Source: Rozella allomycis CSF55 (taxonomy: Eukaryota). Taken from it: a stretch of 64,000 nt of DNA. The translations under genes and the position numbers were made by a program. The stretch lies in contig KE561209.1 in NCBI GenBank assembly GCA_000442015.1, positions 186,001-250,000 of the forward strand. Reading direction: 5' to 3'. The notes under the pieces were generated by a model. That model saw nothing but the letters and a program-made list of their open reading frames with translations. It was not told where the DNA came from and did not search any database. Below, piece by piece: positions 2,430-42,944 of this stretch (the stretch's first letter is position 1; each line of letters begins with the position of its first letter).

Positions 2430-2566
2430 TAAATTGAGTGGCGTAGGGTTTGGAAGAACCAGACAATTGTTTTCACTGAAATATTATATCTCATTGATTG
2501 TTAATACTTAATAGAAAGTCAAAATAATTGCTATAGTCTTGGATTGTTTACTTAAAGTCAAACGTC

Positions 2567-5181
2567 ATGAACACTTATTTAATTGCTGCAAGCCTATTCT
2601 TTATGGTCATAAAGTTGATTTCCTGTGAATTATGCAAAAATGGCGAGCCAGTACATCTAACAAATCGAACGGGGTGGATTACAGATGGGAGTGATTTTTC
2701 TTATGATCCAAATAGTTACTGCATATGGGTACTTGACATTCAAAATCTTACACGCAATGACATCATATTTATTAATTTTGTAGCTTTGGATCTTGAAACA
2801 ATATACCATGATGATCAACCTAATGAATATTTTGATTTTGTAACCATATATAATGGGACTTTGGGGAATATTGATGAAATATCTTTGTATGGCCAGGTGT
2901 TAGATGTTATTAATGGCACTGATCCTTATAGAATATTCAATTATACGAATGTAGACACGCTAACACTCATATTTACCAGTGACGCTACGTATGAATTTGG
3001 AGGATTTGTCGCAGTTTACTGGACACAAAATGATGTCATACCATCTTTATGCCCGACCAATTGTAATAGTAGAGGTAATTGTACGAGTAATGGTTGTGTT
3101 TGTGAATTCGGATACAGCGGCGGTGATTGTAAAAATGACGATATGTATAATCTTTACAAAATCTATAATGAATGCAATGGTCCTTATTGGATAAACAATA
3201 ATCTTTGGTTTAATTCTACAATCGATAAAGTTGATAGCGCCACTTGGTGGTATGGAATAACTTCATACTCAAATCATATTTATCAAATACAGTTAGATGG
3301 GAATAATTTGACGTGTAGTCCTGACTTTAACATTTGGAGCTACATTCCGATCTTTGTTGACTATTTAGACTTGTCTAATAACAATCTTAATACATCGCTA
3401 CCATTAGTGTTCAATGTGACACAAATTTCATCTATTAAATTAACAAACACTTCATTATATGGAGAAATCCCTGCATCTTTCGGTACATTGTCGTCGTTAA
3501 CTAATCTCGTTCTTAATAACAATTATCTTGAAGGATCGATACCAGACAGTTTATCAAGACTTAGTAAATTGTATATATTGAATTTGGAGAATAATCTTCT
3601 TGAAGGGTTTATTCCAGATGGCTTTCAGAATGCCGCTTTCGAATCCATTTTCGTTGCTGGAAACAATATGTGGTGTCCTGGGCCTCAATGGACTTCACTG
3701 GGTTCGTTAACGTGTGTGGACATTGTTGTAAATTCAATAAAGCCCTCGATAGGTAGTAGCTCCGGCGGAATGAAATTATCTATAGACGGGGAGAATATTC
3801 TTCAAAAAACTCACTTGAGTTGCGTGTTTGATGTAACTAAATCCAATTACACGTGGTATAATTCTACTGAACGATCATTACAGTGTATCCTCCCTGAACT
3901 GTCACCAGGGTTAAAATCATTTTATCTGTCAAATTATAATGAAAAGCGAAGTTCCTTTAATAACGTATCGTATTTTATTTACAATGATTGTCCAAAGAAT
4001 ACCTATTTAAATGATGACACGCTTGTTGATTGTATAGCCTGCCCTACTAATGCAATTTGCTTGGGAGGAAATAATTCACCATTGCCAATTCCAGGCTACA
4101 CGATTTCAAAAAATAAAAATATGTTTCTCAAGTGCCCATTCCCTGAAAGTTGCCCGGGATTTACCGTTGAATGTTCAAACTACAGGAAAGGAGAGAGATG
4201 TACTCAATGCATCGATGGATTTTTTCATTTTGGATGGCAATGCATGGAGTGTTCCAATACCACAAAATACATGCTGCTTGCTTGGTATTTTGTCTCTTTA
4301 ACTTTACCTCTATTACTTGTTCTCATCTTTTTGTATTTAAACATAAATTTAGATAGCCTAAAAATTAGTTTTAAGACTTTAGGCTTGATTGGACTTTTTG
4401 TATACTATCCAACTGGGAATGGTTATGTATTTTCAATAATGATAAACTTCTTTTCAATCTTCAGCGGCAATCCGAATATGCTAGGATTGAATTGTTTTTG
4501 GAAAGATTCCACATTGAGCCACCAAAGCATCATTCTTTTCATTTGTCCATTGAGCATTGCTTTTCTTTTCTGGATTGCGTCTAGAGGCTTAAAGACACGA
4601 ATTCGACCTTCCGATGCTGTCATAGAATATTTAAAGTTAAATTTCATATTAATGATAAATTCTTCTGCTCTCACATCTTCATTTCTAATGGACGGTAAGT
4701 CACATTATATTCTTGTCATTTAGAAAATGGGTCATTCTATCGATATAGCCCATCTGAAAGCGGAGGTGTCAATTATTTCATGTTGCTTGTTTCGATTGTG
4801 TATTCTTTATTAATTTTCCCATTCTTTGTAGCCAAACATAATCAATTTCTCAAGAAGAAGGTTGTGTACTATGAAAGTTTTGATTTCATTTGGATTGCAT
4901 TATTCATATTTGTAAGCCTAAGGTTGTGTAACACGCCCATGTTTGGTTCTTTTATTTGTCTATTGATGATGGGAGTGAATTCGTACATAAAATCCCAATG
5001 GCCTCTTCCTGGTAAGAGTTCCCAAAATGATATCACATTACTAAGACTCTTGGCATTTCATTGTCTATTTCTTGTATTTGAACAGTACCTAGACTCAAAG
5101 AACATCGCATCATGGTTATATTTTGCCGGTCTGGTGATTACATTAATTTCGATCAACGTTAAAAGTATACATTGTAAATAA
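2567..5181 (+). CDS. Receptor-like membrane protein: signal peptide, CUB, EGF, LRR, IPT/TIG, Cys-rich repeats, multiple TM helices
   Basis: CUB-like C...GWITDG..Y..NSYCIW...FTSD...GGF; EGF CPTNCNSRGNC...CVCEFGYSGGDC; plant-type LRRs LxGxIP; IKPSIGSSSGG IPT start; hydrophobic C-terminus; one intron at ~4695-4723. Confidence 0.75.
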
Positions 5182-6682: not shown

Positions 6683-8959
6683 ATGACTGAAGGCAGTTTA
6701 GAAGCCGATCGTGAGCAAGTTTTGTTAACAAAGACGAAAATATTAACGTAATAAACGTGAAAAAATATAAGTAGTTGGCTGTATGAGAAACACCAAGTTT
6801 TGATGAATCATCTGTCGTATATGGAAAAGCTGGGTACTGTTATGGATTATGATCCAATGATTGAAAATGATGGAGTTCAAACTGAGCTTAAGCTTCCAGA
6901 GTAATAATTTGCATATTATTTGACTAGTATATGTGCCAAATATCAAGCAAAAGTACAAGAAAAACTATTTCTGTGAACTAGGTTTATGATGAAGAAGAGA
7001 AAAAGAAATATAAAAAACTTATTAAATACCCTCCAAATTTTGAAAGAATTCCACAGCCTGAACCGCAAATTACCTCCGATGGCATCTATGAGTTCTTTTT
7101 GCAGTTGAAGTATTTTCCTCTCTATAAGTATTTGCAAACATCACATAAAATTATAACTTCTAAAGATTGGCAAGTAATTATCAACTGTGTAGCGCATAGA
7201 TTGCTGCTAAGGAACTTCGAGCTTTCAAGGTTCTCGAGAGCATTGAAGAACTAAAGAGTATGAACATGTGGTCTTCAAGGCAAATGAAAAAGCAAATTAT
7301 GCCTCAACGACATAAAGCAAAGTGGGATTACTTGCTGGAAGAAATGGAATGGATGAGTGTTGATTTTCAACAAGAAAGAAAGTGGAAGAAATGTTTGGCT
7401 AAAAAGTGCGCCTTGATGATTGAAGAATATTTTTCCAACAAAAACAAAGCAGCCTCAAATGAAGCCAATAAAGAGATGAAAGAACCAAAATTATTTTACG
7501 AACAACCCCTGGATGTTGACGAATTGCTGGACAACGAAGACATCAGCATTTACGGTCCACCTGATTATGAAAATGATAAATTTGAAGATGAAAATGAAAA
7601 TCTACCGATTGTGCCTCTTTATAAATGGCAACTTCAAGACATGTTTGTAGGGCATCCTGCTGTAAATGATGACACAGAAGACCACGTTGAAATATCTGAA
7701 AAAGCTGAAAAGGAAAACATAGATAGTATGATTTTATTACTTAATTGAATTTAGATTTATTTTATTCCCCAGAAGAAATAGAAGCACAAGAAGGTGAGCA
7801 GTCCACGCCTATTGAATCAACAGCTGAATGGACTGTAGAAGAAGACGATCTTTTAATTACTTATGCAGAAGAATTGTCCTTTAATTGGACCCTCTTAGCA
7901 GAATTAATAAACTCGTCTGCCAAATTCACTGTGAAAAAATCAGAAATAGACATTCAATATAGATACGCTGCATTAGAAAGTGTAGATTCCTCTACACAAA
8001 ATACGCAACATTCTACTTCGATAACCCCTATAGAAAGCTCTTCCAAATATGACCTTAAAATACGAAAAAATCTTCAAATGAGAGGCAAGCTTTTGCAACA
8101 GGAAGCCAAGAAACGTGAAACATCAATTATTTCGTTTTTTGAATCTGTAAAAAAGTTGTCATCAAAACATCGTCCCGCCAAAAGTAACAATTTGAAATTT
8201 CATAAATAAGCCACTACTAAGAAGACAACACTAAGTGCTCATCCATCTCATGATGGAACATTAAAGAAATTAGGAATACCAACTACCAGAATTTCAACAC
8301 CATCAGAGCTAGCGATGAAAAGACTACAAAGAGCTCGAACAATTCAAGAACATGGAATGGTAATTACTTCTATTTTCATTAAAAGATGATGCGTCCACCA
8401 GGAGCTCCGCATGGCCCAGGTGGTCCATTACCACCAAGATCTACAGGCCCTAATAATAATGGGGGACCAATGCCAAGACCAGTGCCACAAGGTGGACCAC
8501 CATCAACAGCTCCGACAACAGCAAATAATGGAATTCCAAATCGTCCAAACATGAGACCGTCACCTATGGGGCAATCACCGGTAATTTCAAAAGAGGGTCA
8601 GCCAACACAACCAATGATCCAGCCTCCAGCACAAGGATTACAACAGCCCTTAATGCAAATGAGTGGTAATCCAGCACAGAACGCAAAGATGCAACAACTT
8701 AACTTTATGGCACAGATTAGAAATCAACTAGCGCGAACAGCATTCATGATGGGGCCTACAGGCCAATTACTTCCAACAGGTACGTATTATGTTTGGATTT
8801 TTATAAGCTTATGCAGGTTTAATGCAAATGAATCAAGGTGTAATGCCGCAACCTGCGACCAGCACCACTCCCCTCATGACTCCACCTCAACATATTAACC
8901 AAGCGCCAGTCAAACGATCTGGCACTCCTCAGTCTAATCAAAACAAAAAGAAAAAATAA
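6683..8959 (+). CDS. EAF1: NuA4 scaffold Eaf1/Vid21-like (HSA + SANT/Myb, Q/P-rich tail)
   Basis: HSA motif KWDYLLEEMEWMSVDFQQERKWK; SANT WTVEEDDLL...FNWTLL; AHPSH motif. Confidence 0.85.
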
Positions 8960-8999
8960 AATAAATATTTCAAGATTAAAATGGTTCATTTTCCTGTAT

Positions 9000-9854
<855 letters not shown>

Positions 9855-10032
9855 TGAAATTGGATGACCCTGGTCCAAACACAACAATCTGAACTTGTAC
9901 ACTGAACATATGATCTATCAAAATGGCATGTTTAAATAACGATAATAGCAATATGAAAAAAATTATGTGAAAAAAAGAAAATGAGTGTTTTGGTGGTATT
10001 GCTAAAAAGGGAATAAAGGATATAAAGGGGAT

Positions 10033-12502
<2,470 letters not shown>

Positions 12503-12612
12503 TTAAAAGAAATTTCAAAATAACGGCACCAGGGTACCACCTCCCAACTGTACAAAACAAAACAACAATGTTAAAATATTGAAAGAAAATTTGAAAATAA
12601 ATATAAAAAGAT

Positions 12613-14013
12613 TTATTGATGATCAATCCACTTCATATTGCCAACTAAAATATATGGCTTTGGTAGTTTGCCATAGCATGGTACCAACAATGTCATTCTT
12701 TGCTTTGCATCATCTATTTCAGTACTATATTTTTTTTAAAAAATAACAATTACACACACATGTATCCAAACACATTTGAAATTGCAATCGCCTCTTCGTC
12801 TTCAGTCTGCTCGCAAGCTGAAAGCGCTAGAATCATATGATTCATCGCGGAGCTTGGCTCGACATCAACAACCCGGATATCATCCACTATTCTCGTAGCT
12901 CCAATAGGGAGCGCAGATGTTGGCGCAACAAATTCTTCACTAATCTTCTTCACACTAACATCTTTGTAATTCAAAATCAAAGAATATGGCGTAAATTCAT
13001 TATCGACTTTATAAAAATATCGATTTATTTGTCTCGACATCTCTTGGCGTCGGTAGATTACATCACGATCAATAACACCCCCAGATTTGGGGACCTTCAA
13101 AACTTCTACCCCTTCATTCTTATTTTTCTTTATAATCTCACTATAAAGTCTCTCATTTCCTAAAACTGCTACCACAGTCACTATTATTCCGTTAAACACC
13201 ATCATTACCTTGATACGCTTCAATTATATGTTGCAAAATCTCAAATCCAACACTGTCTGACCATTTTGGGGCAATTATGATCATTCCTGCATCCATCACT
13301 ATTTACATACCAAGTAATGTTTTACGAGCTTCGTCTTGCTCCAACTTTTTGTACAAAACAGTGGCCATTTTGGCAATAATTTTTTTATAAAGTCTCATAT
13401 TGGTGCTAATTGATGTTTGCCCATAAAAGTAACTAAGAGGCGTTGATGAGGGGCATCCTTCTTCAACATTGACAACTTTATCGAGAACGAAGGCATTCAT
13501 AGTTCCTGGGAAAAGTGTAGATCCCTAATTACAAAATAACTTTTATCATACGTTGGTAACATCAAGATCGATATATAACGGTGATCGTCCCATTCGGACA
13601 GCATAATTGGCAAGGATCTTGCTTGCTGTGTTTCTTCCTGAACCAATCAACAAAATCTATAATTATCATCATTGAATCGTCATACTCTTGGAGATTTCTT
13701 AAGCATTCTTCGTTGCTCCAGCGCTAGATGTAGATTATAGTATATTGGCATAGGTGTTTCCTCGCTGGTGTATTCCACAATCGTTTCACCAGTGATTTCA
13801 AGTGCAGCCCCATGGTACGTATAAACAGCAAGTTTAACACCATTAAAATTATACGGGATATCGATAGCCAGCTCTGTACCAAAGATTTCGGCCGTTCCCC
13901 TTTTCAGCACCAGCTGTAGGCTGGTATTGCTTTCGAAACGAAATTCACTGTGAGCCTTCAATTCGATGATACGAGTCTACTTATTCTTATTCTATGATCA
14001 TTACATCAGTCAT
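12613..14013 (-). CDS. CLP1: Clp1 (CF II subunit / polynucleotide kinase family)
   Basis: GTAEIFGTELA, AVYTYHGA, PKSGGV, APTSALPIGA. Confidence 0.92.
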
Positions 14014-14062
14014 TTATGTTTATTTTTGAACAAAAAACTTGCGAAATTTCAGAAAATATTTT

Positions 14063-14848
14063 TTATTCGTCAATTAAATATTCGCGCTTCAAATAAGCCC
14101 TCATTTGATGTGAAGCTAAATCTAATGGAGTTTTATCTTCGGAATTTTTTATGCTTACATTTGCGTCGTTTTCCATGAAAACAGACGCAATATCAACTCT
14201 CTCCTCTTCTACTGCCAAATGTCTATGCGTGAATTAAATTCATTAATATTACAGAGGTGTATTTTTTGAGTTATCAGTTCTATTAAGCAAGCTTTTATTT
14301 CTCTTCAACAATTCTTTGACTATTTTTAGAGTTCCTCTTGACGCAGCTCTGTGCAACGCATTTTGGCCACTCTTGTCAGTGAGTGTTGGATCTGCACCGC
14401 AGTCAAGAAGATATATTGTCACCTTAATATACGCGAACCAATTATTATACTTCTTCATGCTGTTTGGATATTGAGTACATTAAAGGTGTGCATCCAGCAT
14501 TATTTTTGGCATTTAAAGACACATCGCATTTCTCTAACAGCAACTGCACTATTTTGAGGTTTCCAATTGAAGCGGCAATGTGCAATGGAGTCCAACCAGA
14601 CTTTGGAATACCGAGATATTGATCTTACTTCATCAGGAACATCAACAGGACTTCCAGAGTTGATCAATAGTTGAACTATTTGATCACGACTTCCAGAGAC
14701 AGCGTGGTGTATAGGTAATCTCTGATCCTATATAGAACTCTAATGACTTAGTTACTTCATCAACTGATAATATTTGTTCCATTGATATCTGTTGGCCTTC
14801 TTCTATTTTACCCTCGAAACATGCTTCGTGAATTTTTAACTTTGTCAT
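14063..14848 (-). CDS. Ankyrin-repeat protein, gankyrin/Nas6 (PSMD10)-like
   Basis: DESGWTPLHIAAS, GCTPLMYS, GQNALHRAASRG, NTPLHLAVEEE repeats after splicing. Confidence 0.75.
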
Positions 14849-14923
14849 TGAAATTTCCAATTTTTCGCTTAGGTAAGAAATCAAATAGAGATTTTGACAA
14901 GTTTATATTAAAGGATTTTTCAA

Positions 14924-16178
14924 ATGAATAGCACAACAGGATTAAATGATAATATGAGACAAACTTTGTTTCTGGCTTTAGAAGCTCTTGTGGATAACGA
15001 CAATTTGATACCAAACATAAATATCAGGAAAAAATCGAGTTTGCTATACCCTTTAATGACTGAAAATTCAGCGAAAACTATTACATCTACTACAAAGAGA
15101 AGGAGAGATACGACACCGACGTCCCCCTTTTTGAGTCAAGACTTTAAGGCTTTGAAAATTTCACCCTCTTTTGAAATGGACAGGCGTAAAGCTGAAGATG
15201 AAGATCCCACTGAAGAGTTAACTATCGAGTCTATGATAAACACCCAAAAGTCTCGTTCTTTATTAAAGTCACCAATATCACGACGCAAGAACGAATCTGC
15301 AAACCGAACCCGACCGGAAAATCAGTTCACTGTTAATTCGATTATGGATTCTCCTCCTCTCTCTTCTGTCTTACTTACTGAACAAATAGATTTGATAGAT
15401 AACTCCTTTTCCATAACAGATTCAGATATTCAACATTTTGAAAACGTTGTATCAAAGCCGTACCCTTTTTCTGAAAACATAGACATGGATGTCAACGAAA
15501 TACTTCAATTTTCACATAATCATAGCGCGATTTTTGAATTTGCGTTAAGCACGAACAATCCTTCTCACGAAAAAGTTATCCGTTGGGTCAACGCTACGTG
15601 GCTTTCGTGCATTGATAGAATTAAATCTTCAACATCACAAAACTTTTCTGCTTTTAGTGAAAAAGAAATAGTTATGGCTTTAATGGAGGATATTAGCAAC
15701 AAAGTTGTGCGATACAATTCGTCATTGTACACTGATTCATTACTCATTAAGATTCTAGAGCTGACAGTTTTCCACTTGCAGAAAGTTTCGATTGAATATT
15801 CTGAAACTATTAAAAAACAGTCTAAAAGTAAAATTATGGAATACTTCCAACAATATTTTGAAGTACCTTTCCTTTGTTAAGCCAATATTGCATCAGGCTG
15901 AAAGATTCGATTCTCAAATGATCAATTTACTATCATCTATTGGTGGATTACTTCTTGACGTCGGGTTGACCCTTTGTGAACATATAGTTAACCAAACTAC
16001 AGCAAAAGGTTCTACGGTTACTAGAACAATCCCTTTCCTTACACAATGGGTAATCTTTGCATTTCGTTTCGCATATAAATGTATTACTTTTTTCGGCTCT
16101 GAAAGAGAAACAGAGATGAAAATGCAGCTGTTACTTGCCAAACTTCAATCTAAATTGAAAAGGTCAGACTTGCTTTAG
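14924..16178 (+). CDS. Hypothetical protein (S/P-rich N-terminus, helical C-terminus)
   Basis: 318-aa ORF joined to a second ORF via GT donor at ~15863. Confidence 0.6.
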
Positions 16179-16398
16179 AGACCAACAAGAATTAATTGAC
16201 TATTTTATTTTAAAAATATTAATAATTGTAATAAATATATTCATCTTGACCACTAAATTTAATCAAAAACATTTGACTTCATTCGAGTGGATAAATTAAC
16301 TATTATTCATAAGCGTCGGAGTTGACTTAAATCACGATTACCATTTGATTTCATAGCCTTTTAATTTTTACCCACAAATTTCCTAATCTAGCAATATT

Positions 16399-17692
16399 AT
16401 GAAACCACATATTCCTAGAAAATATTGCTTTGTCATTCATTGTCGAGCATATAGTCAAGACAAGGCGCATCAATTAAATTGGTTTCCTGGGCATATGGCC
16501 AAAGGCTTGAGGCTCCTCGAATTCTACTCTAAAAAGGTTGATCTGGTGATAGAAGTTCGAGATGCAAGAATATCCTTTTTGTTAATATATTAAATACAAA
16601 CAGATCTTCTTAACTTCAAGTTCCATTCTCTTCAGAAAACCCCATGATACGCGACGTTTTCAAGAATGACAAACAGAGGCTGATATTATTCAATAAGTGC
16701 GATTTAGCCGACAAAAAGATGACAAAAGTACTGTAATATTTCCGCACATACTAAGTTTGTAATAGAACGTTTTCGCAAAGAGGGTTTGCAATGCGCTGCA
16801 ATAAACGCCAAGTGCCGCAAAGATGTGTCGAATGTATTAGACACAGTTAAGAAAATATTTTTACCAGATAACGATCGAGTATTAAAGCCAAGGACAAAAA
16901 TGATTATTGTTGGAGCTCCAAATGGTAACATGCATTTCATTCGATGGTTCTAGTTGGAAAATCAACTTTAATTAATAACTTCAGGTCGATGGCATTAGGA
17001 ATAGCAGGTAAAGCGGTGCCTGTTGGAAAAATCCCTGGTATTACAAAGACCACGGTAAGTAAATATGCTTTATATGACCCGGGTCAAATGATTAAAGTCA
17101 ATCAACATCCACTTGTTTACATGCTAGATTCTCCTGGTAGATCTTCTTTTAATTTTAATAATTAAGGGATTCTAGTTCCCAACATAACAAATATGAATAT
17201 CGCTTGTAAACTATTGATTGTTGGATGCGTGAAAGAAGGAATGATTGAACCTGTAATCGCAGCTAAGCAATTTATAAAATTAATGAATGAAGCTAGAAAT
17301 GAAAAGTAACCTGTATTTTGCGGATTTATTTATACAGGTACTTTAAATTTATCGGCCTTAATGCTCCAGTCAGTGAAGACGAAGAGCATAAATTTCTCAG
17401 GCAAATATGCAACCACCATAAAATATTTAAATCAGGTGGTGATTACGATTTTCAGAGAGCCTTTGAATTCGTTCTTCGACGATTTCGTGATGGTCACTTT
17501 GGAAGAATATCATTGGATGAGCCCCACGATTTAGGATGTTTAAAAAAAGAATTACAAATGAAAAGATTTATGAAATCACTAACTAGGCGCGAGAGAAAAG
17601 AAGTGAAAGACTCCAGATCTTCAAATGAAATGGAGATCCAGGAAAGGGTGCAAAACTTTCTCGGCAGAGAATCAATAAATTTGGATGATTAA
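16399..17692 (+). CDS. MTG1: Mitochondrial ribosome-associated GTPase MTG1 (RbgA/YlqF family)
   Basis: WFPGHMAKG, IEVRDAR, NKCDL, GAPNVGKST, LDSPG, GRISLD. Confidence 0.93.
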
Positions 17693-17786
17693 TATTGTTT
17701 TTAATTTAATTAAATAATTCTTATTTTTTTCTTGAGGGGAATTGTTTTTACAAGGCTCGGAAATTTTGCAATTTGTGAGAACGGTT

Positions 17787-19454
17787 ATGAGAAACTCGAT
17801 TACAGGATCGAGTGCAAAAATATCAGAGTTACAAAATGATCAATGCAAGGAAATTCTTCATGTGCATGTAAAAGACAAAGATGAAATTAAATTAATATAC
17901 GATTTTGGCGAAGTGTTAGGCCAGTAATTCATCTTGGAATTTATTTTTTAGAGGCGGCTTTGGAACAGTTAGATTAGTGAAAGAAAAGGGCACAGAAAAT
18001 ATTTACGCTGCAAAAGTTGTGAAGAAGAGTATCGGATCTCCATTGAGGCTAGAACAGATGGAGCGCGAGGTTGAAATATTGAAGCACGTGTCACATCCTT
18101 GCATTGTAAAGGTTAAAGAGGTATATGATACTCCAAAAGCTATATACATGATCATGGAATGGTAAAAAGTGGAGAAGAATTGAAGTAGGTGCCAAGGCGG
18201 AGATTTAGTAGACTACGTGAGCAAAATGAAGGAAATAAATGAAAGTCATATAAGAGTTATTATGAACAAGATTATGGACGCCATTGGTATTTCTGTGGAT
18301 TTGAGATAACATAGCGTTCCTTCATGATAATGGGATTGTGCATAGAGACTTAAAAGTAAATTATTCAGCTCTTATTGAAAGCCTGAAAACATTCTTTTGA
18401 GAAAGACTGGGGATCTTGGTTTTGATTTATGTGTGAGTGATTTTGGACTTGCAACTCTCAATGGAACATCAATGACAATTGGAACAAGCGAAATGATGGA
18501 TAACATGGTAGGAACAACGACTTACATGGGTAATTGATGCATAAGATGTCATATCAGCACCTGAAGTTCAGGGTAATGTAGGCTACTCAAAACAATGCGA
18601 TATATGGAGTGTAGGTGTAATGATGTTTCTACTGTAATAATTAATTGAGTATAAAAATAGCTTCTGCAAATTTGATAAAGAGGCAATGGTTAATCTTAGA
18701 GAAATGGTTGACTCTAAGAAAATTGCCTTTGAGGGCCCACGATGGGAGGGAATATCTAATGCGGGTATTGTAAATAAATGTTTTAAAATAAAGCCAAACA
18801 TTGTATCGAGAGAATGCTTAGACTGGATCCAGCTGAGCGCGCAACTGCTAAAGAAATTCTCAAACATCCCTGGATGCTGGTAAACATTAAACTTAATAGG
18901 ATATTGAGGGCCATGAAGATGTCGATTCAAAATATAATGCGACTGCTACTGTTTTAGATATGATGAGAAGTTACAACTCTGAGCGTCGATTAAAGGTAAT
19001 CATTTCATTATCAAGAAAGGAGAAAATAATGTTTGTTGTTTATGCAGCGTGTATATTGAGCTATCCTTATTTGCCGAAGTCTCTTGAATACCACGATGAA
19101 GAAGAAAACGAATCTCATTCAATGGAATTGCCATCTATTAATATAGGACCCAAGCATCAACCAAAAAAGACAACGTCTACACCCTCATTACCAGATATCG
19201 CAAAGTCTTCCAGGAGTAGCAAAACATCTGAGATATCCAAACATGAAAAACCAAATCTAAATAAGAACTTTGGAGGGTCGAGTAAACGACTCTCCACGAT
19301 ATCTCTTCAAACGAACAAAGGCAATCACCGAATCAGCAACGATGATATTTCTCCTCAACCGAGATCAAAGACGGGAAGTGTTTCCGATGTATCCAATTAT
19401 CGAAGGACATCAGTAGACAACAGGCTAAGAAAAAAAGAAGGCGCCAAAAAATAA
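17787..19454 (+). CDS. CAMK-group Ser/Thr kinase, STK33-like
   Basis: LGQGGFG, EREVEILKHVSHP, HRDLKPEN, SDFGLA, GTTTYMAPEV, YSKQCDIWS, TVLDMMR motif. Confidence 0.8.
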
Positions 19455-19480
19455 ATTTTATATAGAATTCAAACAAATGA

Positions 19481-19951
19481 TCAGTTCGAGTCGTAATCGA
19501 TTACTAATCCTTTTATCTTTGGTTTAGAATCATTTGTTGGTTTCTTTACAGCCTTTTTAATTAACTTCTTTTGGTTCAAAGATTCTGATATTGATGTATT
19601 CTTTTTCTTGGAGCCTTTAATTTCCATATTTTTTTCCTCCAATGGCTTGATTACAACTGATTCTTGGTCCATTTTGTATTTTAGCAGCGCATAATTTTCT
19701 TCTTCTTTTGAAGCTTGATACTTTTCTTTCATTTCATCATAAAGCTCTTTATAATGAAAGTATTCATCATCGTCTATTCTTTTTAAGGTATTATTCAAAC
19801 GATTTCTCTCCCTCCACATTTCTTCTTTTAACTCTTTTTGTTCTAAAATTCTCTCACTTAATGATTTTATCGGTTCAGAGGGCGGTTTAGGGGCATTCTT
19901 TATTTTTTCTTTTTCATTTACTTTTTCCACTATATTATCCCATTCTGACAT
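19481..19951 (-). CDS. FAM192A/NIP30 (PSME3IP1)-like protein
   Basis: SLSERILEQKELKEE...IDDDE..F and C-terminal GLVIDYDS. Confidence 0.7.
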   Translation of the reverse strand: MSEWDNIVEKVNEKEKIKNAPKPPSEPIKSLSERILEQKELKEEMWRERNRLNNTLKRIDDDEYFHYKELYDEMKEKYQASKEEENYALLKYKMDQESVVIKPLEEKNMEIKGSKKKNTSISESLNQKKLIKKAVKKPTNDSKPKIKGLVIDYDSN

Positions 19952-19975
19952 GCTTCAGATTCGTAAATTTGCAAA

Positions 19976-20212
19976 ATGGATTCCATGAAAGAAAAGGTCT
20001 TTAATTCTGCCAAAAAAGTTGACAAATATCACGATGAATTAATAGATTTTGTCTATGCCTTGCCTGAGACCCTAGACAATTTTGAATCTGACTATGAGGT
20101 ATTGTTCAAATTTGACAGTGTATAGATGATAGAAAAGGATTTAATGCAACAATATGACTATAACAACAATCTTTTATTACAGCTGATCAGTGCGTTGGAC
20201 AATAAAAAATAA
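19976..20212 (+). CDS. Small hypothetical coiled-coil protein (~69 aa, two exons; absent from ORF track)
   Basis: MDSMKEKVF...ESDYE | 27-nt GT-AG intron | MIEKDL...LDNKK*. Confidence 0.5.
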
Positions 20213-20257
20213 ATCATGTGATGGAGTCTCTTTAACTTTACGAAATATCTAATTTTT

Positions 20258-20941
20258 ATGAACCGAAAAACGCCCGATGAATTAAGAGCTCTAAAGGTAG
20301 CGGATTTAAAAAAAGAGCTTGGGAAATACGGTTTGCTCTTGACTGGTAAAAAGGAAGAGCTTATTGACAGATTAATTTGCTATTATGAGTAAAATAAATG
20401 CTCAAAGTATACTAGAACATCCGTTGAAAAAAAGCCTAAAGAGCCTGTAATTGAAATTGAAGATCACAGTGAAACTATTTTAACCCACGATGACAATGAA
20501 AGTAATGCAACCGAAAATAAAGATTTGTCTACTGTGATTAATATAAATAAAGAACTCAGTGAAGATGAGAAAAGAAAATTAAGAGCACAAAAGTTTGGAA
20601 TTGAATTGAGTGAAGAAGATAAAAAGAAAACGAGAGCACAGAGATTTAGTCAATCTGGAATAGATACGGTAACAAAATAGCAATAAATGATATTAGAATA
20701 ATTTAGACGTATTAAAAAAGAGGCAAGAAAGATTTAATTTTACAGGAAAAGCTTTGGATTCTGCAGAAAACGAAGAAAAACTTAGAAAACGAAGAGAAAG
20801 ATTCGGGTTAGTGGAACCGAACAAGGATTTTGAAAATAAAAAGGTATTTTTTGATGGTAGTTAAAACAGGGTAACAGTAATAGACATGGAGTAGGATTTA
20901 ATCGGGGCAGGAGAGGAAAGCGATCATTTCGTCCATATTAA
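20258..20941 (+). CDS. THO1: SAP-domain RNP Tho1/SARNP (absent from ORF track)
   Basis: SAP motif LKVADLKKELGKYGL..TGKKEELIDRL; repeated KRKLRAQKFG / KKRQERF / RKRRERFG; three GT-AG introns. Confidence 0.85.
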
Positions 20942-20992
20942 GCAGTACAATAAAATATAAATTTAGTTGAATTTAATGCATTTAAATTTATT

Positions 20993-23130
20993 TTATGTTG
21001 TTGGAATTTTCGTGCTGTTCGAATAACGCCTAGAATTCCTTCTAGGTTGAAATTGAACCGAATTCAATGATTCGACAGATCTATCGAAACCTCGATCGTA
21101 TTTATCAGGCATATGATCTAATACCATTGTTTTGCTAACGAGTATTTCGACAAAGTTTTCAGGGCTATTCTTTTCGATTACGGTGAATTTTGGGTTGGTC
21201 GGGGTGGGTTTTACGTACAAATGGTAGACAGTACCAGGAACATATAGCTGGAATATTTCAATGTATTAATTACTTTTTGATATGATAAAGCAGAAGTCTG
21301 AACCATTATAGCATTCCTGCATTCATCTAGTTTCTTCATCAAGTATTTTGACTTTTCGGATTTTGCCTCTTTACCAGCAATGATCCTCATAAGTTCTTTA
21401 AAATGGCTGTGACAATTTTCAGCGGCACACAGAATCATCGTCTTTAAATCCATCTTGTTGCGATATTGAGGAATACTTACCATCGATCCATAAGATGCGC
21501 GTGAAACAATATCTTCGCCATATATATATGAATGGATGTAATGTGAATATCTTTTTGAAATGTCAAGAGACACAACGCACGGCGGTGCGTATGCGTAACA
21601 TTCTATTTTGAACTTTTCTCGTTTAGGAAATTCATGGTAATGATCTTGAAGCATGATTGTTAACAAGGCTGCTGTACCTGCTCCTAAAGAATGGCCAACT
21701 ATCATCAAGTTCTCAACGTTGTAAATTGATACAAAGGAAATCAGTTGGCCAAGAACATTATCAATGAACCATTGTGCACTGGCATGAATTCCAGAATGAA
21801 CTAGCCCACCTTTCCACGGCTTATATTCACACACAAGGTCTGTTAAAGAATCTTTAAAGCTCATTGTGCCACGTATGCTTAAAATTATTGCAGATGTTCT
21901 TCTGTCAATTGCAATGAAATAACAAGGCCTGAAGACTTTTTCACTTGCTAGTTCAAAATTTAAAAGATCTGGTTTCTGAAGAGAAAGATATTCCAGAACA
22001 CTCTTTTCATCAGATTTGGACCGCACAGAGTCAGCAATGTATCCATTCCCCTTACCAAAGAAATTTAGCCCCTTCCATCCATAAGCTGCCATAGAAAATT
22101 TATAATAATGGCGAGATCTTTCAGCAAATTCCATAGAGTTGACCAAATCCCCGGTTCTTGGTCTAAAATTGAATGAAAACATAAAATTAACCTTGGGACG
22201 TGGAGATAAAAATTCTCTAATATGAAAATACTGGCGATCAATGTGGCATTACTAATCTCTAAGCCTTGGTTATAAGCCACCAAGATTGATTGAATTCCAC
22301 GAAGAACAGCAAGGGTTTCTTTACTAACAATGTAAGATCCAATTGTTTCCAGAAAAGAAACTCCTTTAGAAATTTCAGCCTCGGTCTCTAGAAATGTTTC
22401 TGTTGTTGAATAATCTGATGGTTGAACTGAAGAAATTTCATCATTGTCAGCCAAACTAGATTTACTTTTCCATTCGTTTATTAAATCTTCGAAAGAAATT
22501 TGCTTTTCTTTATCCTTCAACGTATTTTCATCTTCCACTTCTTCTTGGATCTCTTCTGGCACTTCAAACCCCATTCTGGAGATTGGGTTTACAGGATCTG
22601 GATCTGGCTTTTGAAATTGATATTTGATTGACACTTGAATAGCCCCAATATTATCTGAATAAATCGACCGTCTTCCTACTTCTGAAACACTGCTGGGAGC
22701 TTTTCTTTTATGCCAAATTTCAAACCAACTATATTTAAAGCAATATCCAACATACCAAGTAAACGGACATGGTATGCCTTCAAGCAATGAGATTCTTATC
22801 TCAGCCCTTCCAATATATCGGTCAGCTAAAACCAAATTGGAATCATAAACGTCCATCTTTTATTAATTTCTAGTTTTATTACATGAATAGACCAGAATAA
22901 TTGAGCGTGATATGTAACATTGAACTCAAATCCTTCATTCCAGTCTCCAATGGATGTATACGATGCCGATGTTCTGCAAACTTGATTTCCCAAAGAAAGT
23001 CTAATGTAAGGCCTCTTAATATCCATTGAAGAAGACATCTGCAGCACAGTCAGGTATAGCTTTGCAGAATGTGATAATTCCGAACCTTATATAACACACT
23101 ATTCCATTAGATACTCTGACTTGTTGACAT
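20993..23130 (-). CDS. C2-domain + class 3 lipase (DAG-lipase-like)
   Basis: C2-like PYIRLSLG..WNEGFEF; SIRGT, VHSG, GHSLG nucleophile, YAYAPP, DIVSR, MVLDHMP. Confidence 0.85.
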
Positions 23131-23163
23131 AAATCACTAAATCCAAAATCTGAAATTTCAGAA

Positions 23164-25110
23164 ATGACATGTCTTAGAGCAAAGCAAACTTTGGCTTTAA
23201 CAGAAATGTTAAAGTCTGTAGATAGTCTGTTCAAAGTCCTAATTTATGATGCTAAAAGCCAAGAAATTATCTCGCCACTCTTAAAGGTCTCCGATTTAAG
23301 AGATTTGGGAGTCACCATATTTTTAGCATTGCAAAGCGAAAGGATGTCTGTAGATGACGTACCCGCGGTTTATTTTGTAGAGCCAAGATTGTACAGTATC
23401 AGGAGAATAAGTCAAGTATACAATTGGTTTTGCATTTTCTGTAGGATCTCGAAAAAGGACTATATGAACAATTTTACTTGAATTTTACAAGTAGTTTGCC
23501 AAGACCGTTGCTTGAAGAGTTGGTTAGCTTAACTGTGAATAACCAAACCTATGGCAAAATTGTCAAAGTTTATGATCAATATCTAAATTTTGTAACCTTG
23601 GAAGACTACTTGTTTTCGTTACAAGCACATGATTCTTTTTCTATTATTCATGGACCGACCACTTCTCAGACAGTCATTGATGAATTTATTGACAAGACAA
23701 CCCAGGGGTTATTTTCATTATGTGTGACACTCGGTATTGATTTAAATTTAATATAACTAGGTGTTGTACCATCAATTAAAGCATCCAAAGGCAATGCCGC
23801 TGAAATTATCGCTTCCAAAATCGAATCGCGTTTGAGAGATTACATGTTGAATAACAGAAATGTGACTACCAACAGTGATGTTTTCAAACAAAGACCAGGT
23901 AAAAATATTCAAATTAATTAATTTCTGTTTTAATTCTATTGGATAGACATTTGGATTTGGGGATTATGATAAAGCACACTTGGAGTTATTCTACATTGGT
24001 ACACGACGTCTTGAATATGAATTTAAATAAAATTTCGATAAATGTTAATGAGAATGGACAAACCAGCAGAAAAATCGTTAGTGTGGATGACAAGGACTTT
24101 TTTTGGAAGACAAACTTCTTTGAGCCATTTCCACAAGTGGCAGAGAGAATCGATGAAGAAATTACAAAATATAAAAAAGAAGTTGAAGAAGTGACAAGAA
24201 TGGGTGGTGTTGAAAGCATCAACGATCTCAACCCATCGGACAATCAGTTTAACGCTCAACAACTGAAAGTCGCTATTTCAGCAGTTCCAAAATTAACAGA
24301 AAGGAAAAGAATAATTGACATGCACATGAATTTAGCAACATGCCTTTTAGATGAAATAAAGACGAGAACTATTGATAACTTTATAGCGTTGGAAGAAGAT
24401 TTCAATAAAACAACCAAAACGCAAATTTTAGACATTTTGAATGGCCAGAGTTCTTCCAATGACAAACTTCGTCTCGTTATTGCCTCTATTTTAGCGAACC
24501 CTGGTCAAGACTATTCTGATTTAAAAACAAAATTAGAATCATTGAATATCAACATAAGCGCCATTAGGTTTATTGAAAAGTAAAATTTAAATTAATGGGT
24601 TCATAGAAATCGTTCGTTGGGAAGAATGACTGACAAAAATGTGAAAGTGAGTAGCTCTAATTCGTCACAAGATTTGTTTGGAAAGTTTAAATTACCAGAA
24701 AATTTTAGAGAGGGCTCCTCTATTCTTGGAGGAGCTCTTGGTAATTTGATGTCCGGAGTTAAAAAGTTGTTTCCTGTTCATTCCGACTCAATAATTACAA
24801 GGATGATAGATTCCATATTATTAAATGAACAAGAATCAGAAAGTGATTTTGTTTCATTAGATCCAACGCAATCAAAAGCAGATAAGAAGGGGAAGAATAC
24901 CACGCCCGTAGCACCAAAGGAAGATGCGATAGTGTTTCTTGTAGGCGGTGGAAACTATTTGGAATACCAAAATATACAAGAATATTGCACAGTAAATGTT
25001 TTTTACTTGTATTATAGCGAACGAAACGAAAAATTATCTATGGGGCAACGGAAATTGTAACCCCTGACAAATTTCTAAACCAATTGCAAGAACTAGGAAT
25101 TCCAAAATAA
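23164..25110 (+). CDS. SLY1: Sec1/Munc18 protein Sly1 (SCFD1)
   Basis: FKVLIYD, IISPLLKVSDLRDLGVT, DVPAVYFVEP, IDMHMNLAT, AIVFLVGGGNYLEYQN. Confidence 0.95.
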
Positions 25111-25226
25111 AAACATTGATAAAATTCATTTGCTATTTGCAAATATTGCATATTTCGACTTCCTTCGTCTAGAATAAAAAATGTGCGAGGACCCTTTATT
25201 GTTACTTTTGATGATCACAAACCACA

Positions 25227-25297
25227 GCGTCAGTGGTTTAGTGGTAAAATTAGCCCCTGCCACGGGTTAGCCCCGAGTTCGATTCTCGGCTGACGCA
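25227..25297 (+). tRNA. tRNA-Gly (GCC)
   Basis: GCGTCAG/CTGACGC acceptor stem, D-loop AGTGGTA, anticodon loop CTGCCAC, T-arm CCGAG-TTCGATT-CTCGG, followed by a T5 terminator. Confidence 0.95.
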
Positions 25298-25424
25298 TCT
25301 TTTTGGACAATTAAATTTTCTTTATGATTTGCCAATTCAACTTTTCATTTATATTCCATTCAAATATAACCCTAGCCTAAGCAGAAACATGTTTGTTTTG
25401 GAAAGCATTGATATACATCGCTTA

Positions 25425-25620
25425 TTTTTTTTTTTTTAAATATATACAATTAAGTCAATAATCGTATTTATTAAGGATGAGGGATCCACATCGTCAAAGT
25501 CACCAAGGAGTCGAACCCTGCCTCACCCTAAAACCCCGGAAAATTCGGAAACATGGATGGGGTTCGAACCATGCACCTAGACGTCCAAAAGGATCTAAGT
25601 TTGCCACTAGACCACCGGAC
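25425..25620 (-). mobile_element. tRNA-derived SINE-like element or tRNA-like Pol III ncRNA
   Basis: Minus strand: A box TGGTCTAGTGG, B box GGTTCGAACCC, second B box GGTTCGACTCC, then AATAAA and an A13 tract; acceptor stem not formed. Confidence 0.5.
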
Positions 25621-25660
25621 AGTCATTTGTCTTTTCGTAACTTGTAAATTTCCGACAAGT

Positions 25661-26087
25661 ATGACCACGAGAAAACCCAGATCACAAAGGTAAATTTCTT
25701 TTTAATGTAATGTTTTGGTATGTTAATGGTGCATTTGGTCCATCTCAGCAAAGCTACGCTCCCGCTCAACCAATAGCCACTGTGCAAGAATACGAAGATC
25801 ATACTTCGCACTATGTTAACAGACTGTCGTCTAAAGTTGATACGCTGAAATCAGTATTCTTTTATATATGTTTTTATTAGATCAGCATAGACATAGGCAA
25901 GGAGGTTAATGAACAAAATCAATTTCTAGATTCTATGCGAACTGATTTTGAAAAGTCCGAAAATGTGCTTAGTCAAACATTAATGCGTTTAAGAGTTATG
26001 GCTGCAACTCAAGGGGGTGGTATGTTTTTGTACTTGACTCTTTTTATCGTCGGTGTTGTTAGCTTCATTTATTTTAAGGTTTTATAA
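25661..26087 (+). CDS. BET1: Qc-SNARE Bet1 (absent from ORF track)
   Basis: LSSKVDTLKS|ISIDIGKEVNEQNQFLDSM..DF, C-terminal TM anchor; start 25661 or 25710. Confidence 0.88.
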
Positions 26088-26137
26088 TTTAAAACATCAT
26101 AGAATCCCTCGCATAAACTATTTATTGTAAAATAAAC

Positions 26138-27391
26138 TTAAAAATCAACTTGTTGAGTTTGAGACGGAACACATTCCACTGGACAGTAGGGGCATTTGAA
26201 GCGACTAAACTTAAATAATGTAATAGATTACTTGTTATTTCCTTTTGATAATTTTGTAACTGCCTCCTTGCTAAGTATATGTCCACATGGCAATATCATA
26301 GGTGGGTTTTCGTCAGTCGATGTTTGTTTCATAACTGGACAAGCAAACACTGAGTGGAAAGAGTATTTTATGGGAAGTTCAATTTCGATCTCTTTTGATT
26401 ATATTTAGAATTTACCGGAAGTTCGTTTTGTTGAGTCCATTCAGCCTTCTTTTCTTTTACAATTGTTGAAAGCTTCTGTAGTTTTGGGAGGGCTACAGCA
26501 CTCGCTTCCAGAGCCAGCAATAAAGGATCAGTATTGGGTAATCCAATCTTCGAGCAAAATTCATTCATGAGCATATTCTCAACAGTCTCCCATTGTTCAT
26601 CCATCGAAATCGACGGGATCAATTGGCTTCCCATAGGGTAAAGCAGAAAAGACATTAATTTTTGTATTTCTTTAATCTGGGATGCTCCAAAATCCTTAAA
26701 ATTTGCCCTGGCGTATTCCAAAGCCTTTTTGCTTCCAAATGCTTTTTGAGTCATCAAAAATCCAGTCTTGTACAACTCAAACTTTAGAGGAGACTTTCTT
26801 TCGCTTAAAAATTTCTCGTTTCTATTTGCCCATCTTTGTCCGAAAGATGCTTAGCATTTACTTTAAGGCTTCATCCAGTTTTTTCATCTTTAAAGAGTGA
26901 ACTATGATAAATAATTCGTTAAGAGCGTTCTTCATTTCATTGGGAAGGGGCAAGGCTGCTTCCTTTATACGTCAATTAATTCAAATACCTTGCTTAAGGT
27001 CTCACTTACACTAAACTTTCCATTTCTGAGATAGTGATGCATGATTGCAGTCATTAATGCGTCTTTTTGATCATTAGTAATCTCGGATGTTGCCGTTTGA
27101 TCCATTTCATCACCCTTGAATTTCTAACTTGGTGTAATTTGGCAATCTTTACTTTTTCCACCTGCTTTGAGAATTTAGAAATATTCAAACTAGTTGTCTT
27201 GCATTGGGCGGAAAGCGATTCTATGGTTCTCATGGCGCATTTGACGCTATTCTCAATCGATTGAACTAAATTAGTCAGTTTTGGACTTTACTATCACTAG
27301 ACTCTTCAAAAAGTGAACATATATATGATAAAGCTTTTGAAGTAGATTGAAATTGCGCACTCACAGATTCAGATGTCTTATCAAATTCCAT
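26138..27391 (-). CDS. GID/CTLH complex RING subunit RMND5/Gid2
   Basis: LisH-like IMHHYLRNGKFSV, ELPIEIEL, FHSVFACPV, NPPM..PCGH, FKCPYCP. Confidence 0.88.
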
Positions 27392-27510
27392 GTATGACAA
27401 TGACAAGGGGTCAATATCATATAATCAATGTGATCATAGAAATTATTATTATTTTATTATTTTATTCCTTACGCTGTGTTCCAATCGTTTCAAATGCCGA
27501 CTCAGCCATT

Positions 27511-28200
27511 ATGCAAACTGAATACTTTTCATCCACGAGCGATAGTGATTCCTGCGACATTGGCTGGGTTAACAGTTTTCTAAACCACAAAGGAAATGAA
27601 TATTATTGCGAAGTCGATCAAGAATATATCCTTGATAAATTCAACTTGGCTGGTTTGCCCAGTGAAGTTAAAGATTTTGAGAAAGCATATGAGATAATAA
27701 TCGATGAGGCAGGTAAAATATATTCTGTATTTTTATTTCGATTTCGATGAAGAAAATGAAGAACTCTACTATTCAGCGTGTCATTTGTATGGCTTAATCC
27801 ATTCTAGATATATAATTTCGCCAAAAGGGTTGTCTAAAATGGTACACAAACGTTTTTAATTTAATTTTTAAGCAATCCAAATTTAAACAAGCAACTTTCG
27901 GTAAGTGTCAGAGAACACTATGCCAAGAATTTCCACTACTACCAGTTGGGATTAGCGACGCTCCTGGAATGGCTCATGTATATCTTTATTGCGCAAAATG
28001 CAGTAATTATGGCATTTATTTGTTTAAAAGATGATGTTTACAGTCCAAGTCACACAATATACAAATCAATCGATGGTTGTCATTTTGGGAGGACCTTTCC
28101 CCATTTCTTCTTTTTGACTTTCCCAAACTTATTTCCTTTAGAAAAACCAATGACTTATAAACCTAGAATGTTCGGTTTCAAACTGAATGGTTTAGAATAA
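27511..28200 (+). CDS. CKB: Casein kinase II beta subunit
   Basis: WVNSF...GNEYYCEVDQEYILDKFNL, LYGLIHSRY, FGKC.R..C, IDGCHFGRTFPH, PRMFGFK. Confidence 0.92.
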
Positions 28201-42760: not shown

Positions 42761-42944
42761 CTGGCGTTGAATGAGGCTGTGAATTTGTTTGAAAAGAATG
42801 CACAGGATCGTTGTCCCGAAATCATAACCTTAAAAATGGTATTTAGGAATAAGTAGCATGAATATAATACTCATTGCGTGAACTATAGACTTTTTATAGT
42901 TCACAGTTTTATCATCAGTCCAGTTCATTTAATTTACTAATTTA

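Follow-up and report, generated by a model that had tools for sequence, protein, structure and literature searches.

Which spliceosome would remove a 50-nt interruption that begins with AT and ends with AA from a gene of Rozella allomycis CSF55, a Rozellomycota parasite? The question is raised by a gene within the 64,000-nt stretch of contig KE561209.1 analysed here (the window; all coordinates count from its first letter). By its best matches and by an intron position in common with its relatives, we identify this gene as MTG1, a mitochondrial-ribosome assembly GTPase of the RbgA/YlqF family: it carries circularly permuted GTPase motifs with WFPGHM and DARxP at the N-terminus, and it is nearest to MTG1 proteins. 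The mitochondrial ribosome-associated GTPase 1 is the best PDB match both for exon 1 (E 6.7e-7) and for the annotated part of the protein, and the seven candidates returned by a word-based protein search with exon 1 came down to one protein. Exon 4 is 100% identical, across 60 aa, to an annotated protein of R. allomycis CSF55, and the cluster of this match holds two public proteins, RKP21193.1 (272 aa, partial) and EPZ31617.1 (275 aa), which both start 3' of the 50-nt interruption and are devoid of WFPGHM, DAR and NKxD. Our full model encodes 374 aa and has, besides the 50-nt intron, four GT-AG introns of 28, 29, 30 and 32 nt (Table 1). About 100 residues, with the G4 motif among them, are thereby added to the public MTG1 model.

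Table 1. Exons, introns and splicing signals of the Rozella MTG1 gene, in window coordinates
Feature	Position	Strand	Basis or remark
MTG1 exon 1	16399..16569	+	57 codons: N-terminal extension, WFPGHMAK, ...EVRDAR; missing from both public models
Predicted U12-type phase-0 intron, AT-AA ends, 50 nt	16570..16619	+	homology gap, motifs, position of human AT-AC minor intron
U12-type 5' splice site ATATCCTTT	16570..16578	+	same as the 9 intronic bases given for human and mouse MTG1
Inner GT...CAG stretch, 23 nt	16581..16603	+	rival nested reading; excision leaves 27 nt
U12-type branch-site match TTCTTAAC	16607..16614	+	adenosines 16612 and 16613; TCTTAAC at 16608-14
AA 3' end (predicted)	16618..16619	+	6 nt past A16613
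MTG1 exon 2	16620..16727	+	VPFSSENP...NKCD, carries the G4 motif; structure-sequence and TIGR03596 matches
GT-AG intron, 28 nt	16728..16755	+	predicted; public model implies a longer intron here
MTG1 exon 3	16756..16924	+	translation and model
GT-AG intron, 29 nt	16925..16953	+	same in both public models
MTG1 exon 4	16954..17136	+	G1 to G3 motifs; may contain a 27-nt GT-CG intron (17055-17081)
GT-AG intron, 30 nt	17137..17166	+	same in both public models
MTG1 exon 5	17167..17305	+	model
GT-AG intron, 32 nt	17306..17337	+	predicted
MTG1 last exon, including stop codon	17338..17692	+	full model of 374 aa

Two other places in the gene model differ from, or could alter, the public versions. In EPZ31617.1, MTK is joined straight to GLQ, which implies a 55-nt intron at 16728-16782 (+); the 28-nt GT-AG alternative at 16728-16755 keeps nine extra codons in frame and matches the local size class. 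In addition, exon 4 holds a candidate 27-nt in-frame intron with a GTAAGT donor and a CG end (17055-17081, +), which is coding in both public models. The G2-G3 spacing is 27 residues in the annotated protein vs 14-21 in the 17 measurable homologues, and it would be 18 if this piece were removed; human MTG1 has a 9-residue gap at the site. Removal and retention are scarcely separated by the protein profile (254.8 vs 254.0 bits).

The 50-nt interruption itself is delimited by homology. GAT GCA AGA ends at 16569 and is followed from 16570 by ATATCCTTTTT; ...TTCAA ends at 16619, and joining 16569 to 16620 yields DAR-VPFSSENP. Left unspliced, the frame from exon 1 hits a TAA after seven codons. The initial annotation had read a U12-type donor consensus after GAT GCA AGA, a TCTTAAC branch site and an end at ...TTCAA that restores the protein motif, and all three readings prove correct. 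In seven of the eight MTG1/RbgA chains common to both structure-sequence searches, the end of exon 1 and the start of exon 2 fall on adjacent residues (for example 58|59 in 9e9c_z, 34|35 in 1puj_A and 41|42 in 6g0z_B); the match of the eighth, 3cnl_A, begins only at residue 16 of exon 2 and so is silent on the junction. Similarly, exon 1 covers positions 1-32 of TIGR03596 and exon 2 positions 33-67, the two abutting.

We scored 2674 stop-free donor/acceptor choices nearby against a profile of 62 homologues, namely those of 150 matches in which DAR is followed by xP and which are 110 residues or longer. The five best-scoring junctions are every one 50 nt long (254.0-255.4 bits), the best GT-AG, GC-AG and AT-AC junctions reach 213.3, 205.9 and 239.4 bits, respectively, and none of the scored GT-AG or GC-AG junctions preserves the family motif. 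Both 16570-16619 (AT-AA) and the register one base to its left give DARVP at 254.0 bits, and the registers 1-3 nt rightward give DARIP at 255.4 bits. Because protein homology scores these top five registers alike, it fixes the 50-nt length and a five-base range; the choice of 16570 comes from the donor motif and the orthologous introns, which decide what homology alone does not. Indeed, among the five near-equal registers, only AT-AA has a donor of a known class. Several other donors were tried and rejected: GT at 16537, 16546, 16555 and 16581 and GC at 16505, 16512 and 16564 either sacrifice conserved motifs or imply introns 98-167 nt long, and GT16581-AG16603 as the sole intron runs into an in-frame TAA. 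The earlier statement that there is no suitable GT donor holds for a single-step event, but not beyond it, as the inner GT (16581)...CAG (16603) pair, 23 nt long, does exist.

It could be argued that another junction is used (an Ile-giving register shifted by 1-3 nt, an AT-AG junction, or AT-AC at 16640), or else that the intron is not removed and the N-terminal exon is dead. The shifted registers do score 1.4 bits higher, and Ile follows DAR more often than any other residue (in 66 of the 106 homologues with xP, against 14 with Val); moreover, exon 1 is left out of both public models. However, the ends of the shifted registers (TA-AG, AT-GT and TC-TT) belong to no known class, use of the AG whose G is 16620, the base right after the AA, would shift the frame and bring in a stop codon, and AT-AC at 16640 removes seven conserved residues and scores 219.0 bits. 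As for a dead first exon, WFPGHM, DAR, SSxNP and NKxD are intact in exons 1 and 2, with no lesion, and the annotated short forms are without the G4 motif. We consider these options very unlikely.

The preferred reading, a U12-type intron at 16570-16619, draws first on its internal signals. The donor conforms to RTATCCTT and equals those of human and mouse MTG1, a CCTTAAC-type branch site is matched near the 3' end with one C-to-T departure, and there is no polypyrimidine tract, just CTTCAA after the branch A. Folding of the 50 nt gave -2.1 kcal/mol (z -0.40), which amounts to no structure. The one RNA run over 8000-27900 produced scattered short matches and no joints, and is uninformative on expression or splicing.

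Moreover, the position is that of a minor intron in other MTG1 genes. Olthof et al. 2019 (PMC6717393) list both human MTG1, with the donor CGG|ATATCCTTT, and mouse MTG1, with AGG|ATATCCTTT, as containing a minor intron. In de Wolf et al. 2021 (PMC8280824) the human intron is AT-AC, with GAT GCC CGG before it and ATC CCA after it, which places it at DAR|IP. The initial annotation had proposed comparing the position with MTG1 orthologues: the Rozella site, DAR|xP in phase 0, is exactly that of the human minor intron, on the same codon boundary. This human intron (chr10:133395778-133396162, 385 nt) is affected in five of nine conditions, comprising U12, U4atac and U6atac morpholinos and two patient sets, and unaffected in the remaining four, and the 78-nt minor intron of zebrafish mtg1 is affected in both of two rnpc3 sets (Olthof et al. 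2024, PMC11347168; Table S6 for the human conditions). By column count, Table S8 of Olthof et al. 2024 also places a 'non-canonical' intron of Paramicrosporidium saccamoebae at the human MTG1 minor-intron position; the data given there include no high-confidence minor snRNA for this species. MTG1 was absent from the searchable supplements of Parada et al. 2014 (file 1 aside).

Eight loci were returned when metagenome contigs were scanned for an E-x-R-D-A-R pattern directly before RTATCCTT. Four of them (L002, L005, L003 and L008) are MTG1-family genes with three distinct sequences, and each has an AT-AC intron of 119-150 nt with a GCCTT[AG]AC branch match. Since L002 and L005 are identical and L003 and L008 are close relatives, they stand for two independent eukaryote lineages. 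The other four (L001, L004, L006 and L007) are not MTG1 and were set aside as chance matches. The pattern demanded the donor, and the scan is therefore silent on the rate of intron loss or conversion at this site. Taken together, the human minor intron at DAR|IP and the three distinct metagenomic AT-AC introns support the U12-type call. At the protein level, DAR-IS(F/T/Y/L) is seen in 11 of 150 homologous predicted proteins, a suggestive pattern that would fit read-through of a minor donor at this site.

These orthologues also put the branch site in perspective. Counted in the same way from the second branch A, a nucleotide predicted from the motif, the distance to the 3' end is 6 nt in Rozella, 9 in human, 10 in L002 and 35-36 in L003 and L008, a wide range around an optimum of 11-13 (Turunen et al. 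2013, PMC3584512), where the counting may differ by 1-2. The Rozella distance is thus short, as had been noted from the start. In the AT-AC introns of L003 and L008 it is the GCCTTGAC branch match that lies 35-36 nt from the 3' end, well past the usual 11-13.

Could such signals have come together by chance? In the 128,000 strand positions of the window, RTATCCTTT occurs twice and CTTAAC 21 times. Donor-plus-branch pairs average 0.105 over 200 dinucleotide shuffles, and the window has two. One of these, at 50243 on the minus strand, sits antisense within a 570-codon ORF and is a chance match, which shows that such pairs can form by chance. What chance fails to explain is the overlap of the 16570 signals with a homology-defined gap and with orthologous introns. 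The window has 22 further RTATCCT matches, which, bar two, were assessed by listing alone. Those at 53982 (+) and 50243 (-) looked minor-intron-like and were rejected, as both are antisense inside long ORFs.

The interruption is also unlike the ordinary introns of this genome region. When GT-AG pairs are counted by length, free of any model, only GTA donors show an excess, and only at 26-29 nt. Under a flat length prior, a rough gene finder, whose scoring favoured GTA donors and whose introns are predictions, assigned 92 introns to the 26-29-nt range (mode 27) and one to four to each length outside it, many of the latter being clearly fused-gene artefacts. At 50 nt the interruption measures 1.85 times the mode, which agrees with the earlier estimate of nearly twice the local size, and it has none of the features of a U2-type mini-intron (GTA donor, AG end, 26-29 nt). 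Among the predicted local GT-AG introns of 25-33 nt, 0/104 have TATCC after the first base and 0/104 have CTTAAC. From the local GTA excess at 26-29 nt and the lack of these signals in 104 introns, the 50-nt intron therefore belongs to a separate class.

The inner GT...CAG stretch allows a different scenario, in which the major spliceosome would first cut the GT-AG piece 16581-16603 and the minor spliceosome would then remove the remaining 27-nt AT-AA intron. The sole two G's of the 28-nt middle make up the inner GT and AG, and what is left has the modal local length; only 1.5% of 20,000 shuffles of the middle do likewise, which is rarer than expected, for a test picked after the pattern had been seen. 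However, the inner GTT donor and the 23-nt length lie outside the local major class, neither GTT nor 23 nt showing any GT-AG excess, and the orthologous introns are ordinary single minor introns. In addition, the inner piece breaks no signal, so its removal is unneeded. For the same reason this is not a stwintron: in fungal stwintrons the inner intron by definition disrupts the outer donor, branch site or acceptor, and here 16581-16603 sits between an intact donor and an intact branch site. We regard nested removal as improbable.

Removal of a single U12-type intron presupposes a minor spliceosome. Among its putative snRNAs, Table S7 of Olthof et al. 2024 (PMC11347168) gives Rozella one U11, one U12, no U4atac and one U6atac, with U11 and U6atac above the Rfam threshold and U12 below it; this agrees with the initial suggestion that Rozella has retained a minor spliceosome. 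In the same table, U4atac is missing or U12 is sub-threshold in species with known minor splicing too, such as Acanthamoeba and Basidiobolus. Table S4 of that study counts 0 minor, 52 minor-like and 59 hybrid introns in Rozella, and in Table S8, by column count, the Rozella entry in the MTG1 column is 'protein_ortholog', with no intron class, as the shortened public model would cause. The count of zero is likewise explained by gene models that stop short of the MTG1 intron. An Rfam scan of the 64-kb window had a tRNA gene (25227-25297, +) as its sole match and gave no snRNA, as expected for so small a fraction of the genome.

Our literature search returned nothing on minor-specific spliceosomal proteins of Rozella, a species absent from the searchable supplements of de Wolf 2021 (file 13 aside) and Norppa 2024. 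No report of Rozella minor introns was found in full-text literature either; subscription papers, bioRxiv supplements and intron databases may hold one, and Figure S1 of Larue and Roy 2023 includes Rozella by name, so that its values may constitute such a report. One Polycomb paper holds both Rozella and minor-splicing terms, and the accessible text of Whelan et al. 2018 (PMC6349667) mentions, for Rozella, just short introns of about 30 nt.

With U4atac not found and U12 merely putative in the published table, one could speculate that the intron descends from a minor intron and is now cut by an end-tolerant major spliceosome, the minor snRNAs being relics or serving few others. A branch site that is off by one C, and the presence within this gene of one candidate with a non-AG end (17055-17081, CG), would fit such tolerance. 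Against this, the intron has retained a perfect 9-base minor donor and CTTAAC, signals that the 104 predicted local major introns do not have, both of its ends as well as its length fall outside the major class, and U11 and U6atac exceed the Rfam threshold. There is, in our judgement, very little probability that the major spliceosome has taken over.

In our view, 16570-16619 is probably an ancestral minor (U12-type) MTG1 intron that would be cut in one event by a retained minor spliceosome, since the site is that of the human AT-AC minor intron and metagenomic MTG1 genes have AT-AC introns there. Most likely, it was inherited at the DAR|xP site from the animal-fungal common ancestor and its last base changed from C to A. 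The gap, its 50-nt size, the motifs and the common position are established by the sequence and its comparison with homologues, and from the motifs and the orthologues we predict the AT-AA 3' end and removal by the minor spliceosome. The U11/U12 particle is known to recognize donor and branch site jointly (Turunen et al. 2013, PMC3584512), and in Rozella it would bind ATATCCTTT together with TTCTTAAC. Branching would follow at A16612 or A16613, and the 3' end would be set near the branch site, 6 nt after A16613, at an AA where the ancestor had AC. The neighbouring AG, one base further on, would be skipped, in keeping with Turunen et al. 2013 (PMC3584512), who describe AT-AG as disfavoured. The expected product is the 374-aa MTG1 with, by homology, the complete set of GTPase motifs. 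That it exceeds the 26-29-nt major introns in length may reflect the greater donor-to-branch spacing that the minor machinery requires, as in Blastocystis.

Some observations count against this explanation. A T in the branch site replaces the first of two C's present in the orthologues, and these two C's have been tied to minor-spliceosome use (Olthof et al. 2024, PMC11347168). The distance from branch to end is short, an AG lies 1 nt off the end and the rightward registers gain 1.4 bits. The published tables give Rozella no U4atac, a sub-threshold U12 and 0 minor introns.

It is possible, if rather doubtful, that the minor introns of Rozella form an AT-AA class whose end is set by distance, without nesting. 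A further version, which we think improbable, would make them a class of about 50 nt that mostly end in AA at a short fixed branch distance, the present one being a 23-nt major-type intron nested in a 27-nt AT-AA intron and removed by two spliceosomes in two steps. If nesting were true, no survey would contain a minor intron as short as the one removed in the second step; the largest minor-intron survey excluded introns <30 nt (Larue and Roy 2023, PMC10639083).

What is well supported is that this is a real, unannotated U12-type intron at an ancient site; its kind is already known, and it represents no new kind of system. It provides a candidate substrate for the minor snRNAs that the published table gives Rozella beside a count of 0 minor introns. 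It also supports the survival of minor splicing in Rozellomycota, the group next to microsporidia, despite major introns of 26-29 nt, and such survival would date the microsporidian loss after that split. Moreover, the 6-nt distance from branch to end, with an out-of-frame AG one base off, constitutes a natural test of how the minor spliceosome chooses a 3' end.

Elsewhere in the window, a FAM192A/Fyv6 gene (19481-19954, -; Pfam PF10187, E 3.4e-10) lies about 3 kb from the MTG1 intron. Fyv6 is a second-step splicing factor that influences 3' splice-site choice in yeast, and its proximity here is probably chance. Broken LTR-retrotransposon remnants with integrase and RNase H-like domains and several stops occupy about 37900-43000 (-), and 8 of the 10 N's of the window fall between 36984 and 42758. 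A 728-codon ORF (2537-4723, +) combines EGF-like, leucine-rich-repeat and IPT/TIG domains, an architecture that is more amoebal than fungal.

The closest known counterparts are the MTG1 minor introns of human, mouse and zebrafish, which share with that of Rozella the gene, the donor ATATCCTTT and a CTTAA branch core near the 3' end. The codon boundary DAR|xP in phase 0 is common to Rozella and human, for which it was seen directly, and the mouse donor follows AGG. They differ in length, with 50 nt in Rozella vs 385 in human, 1812 in mouse and 78 in zebrafish, and in their ends, AA in Rozella and AC in these orthologues. The branch site is TCTTAAC in Rozella, with 6 nt after the second A, and CCTTAA(T/C) in the orthologues, with 9 nt in human. 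Furthermore, splicing by the minor spliceosome has been demonstrated for the human intron, whereas for the Rozella intron it is predicted from sequence.

A retained minor spliceosome and AT-AA ends are less surprising than first judged, because minor introns persist in early-diverging fungi and no other non-canonical minor end is as frequent as AT-AA. The latter ranking has been described for animals and plants (Larue and Roy 2023, PMC10639083), where non-canonical ends make up about 4% of conserved minor introns, and in MSH3 an AT-AC/AT-AA change separates the human and mouse orthologues (Sheth et al. 2006, PMC1557818). The AT-AA minor introns of animals and plants have the same termini as that of Rozella and a full minor donor and branch site, the difference being that the host here is a Rozellomycota parasite. 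Within fungi, Ascomycota and Basidiomycota lost minor splicing and early-diverging lineages retain it, with 205 minor introns in Rhizophagus irregularis, about 240 in Basidiobolus meristosporus and 129 in Neocallimastix californiae; these are intron-rich genomes, unlike that of Rozella, with its 26-29-nt major introns and a count of 0 minor ones. In compactness, Rozella is best compared with Blastocystis sp. subtype 1, also a parasite with a compact genome and very short AT-start minor introns, of median 39 nt, 77% AT-AC and many in phase 0 (Larue and Roy 2023, PMC10639083). Blastocystis belongs to an unrelated lineage and has hundreds of such introns and four snRNAs, whereas in Rozella a single intron has been studied, 50 nt long and with an AA end.
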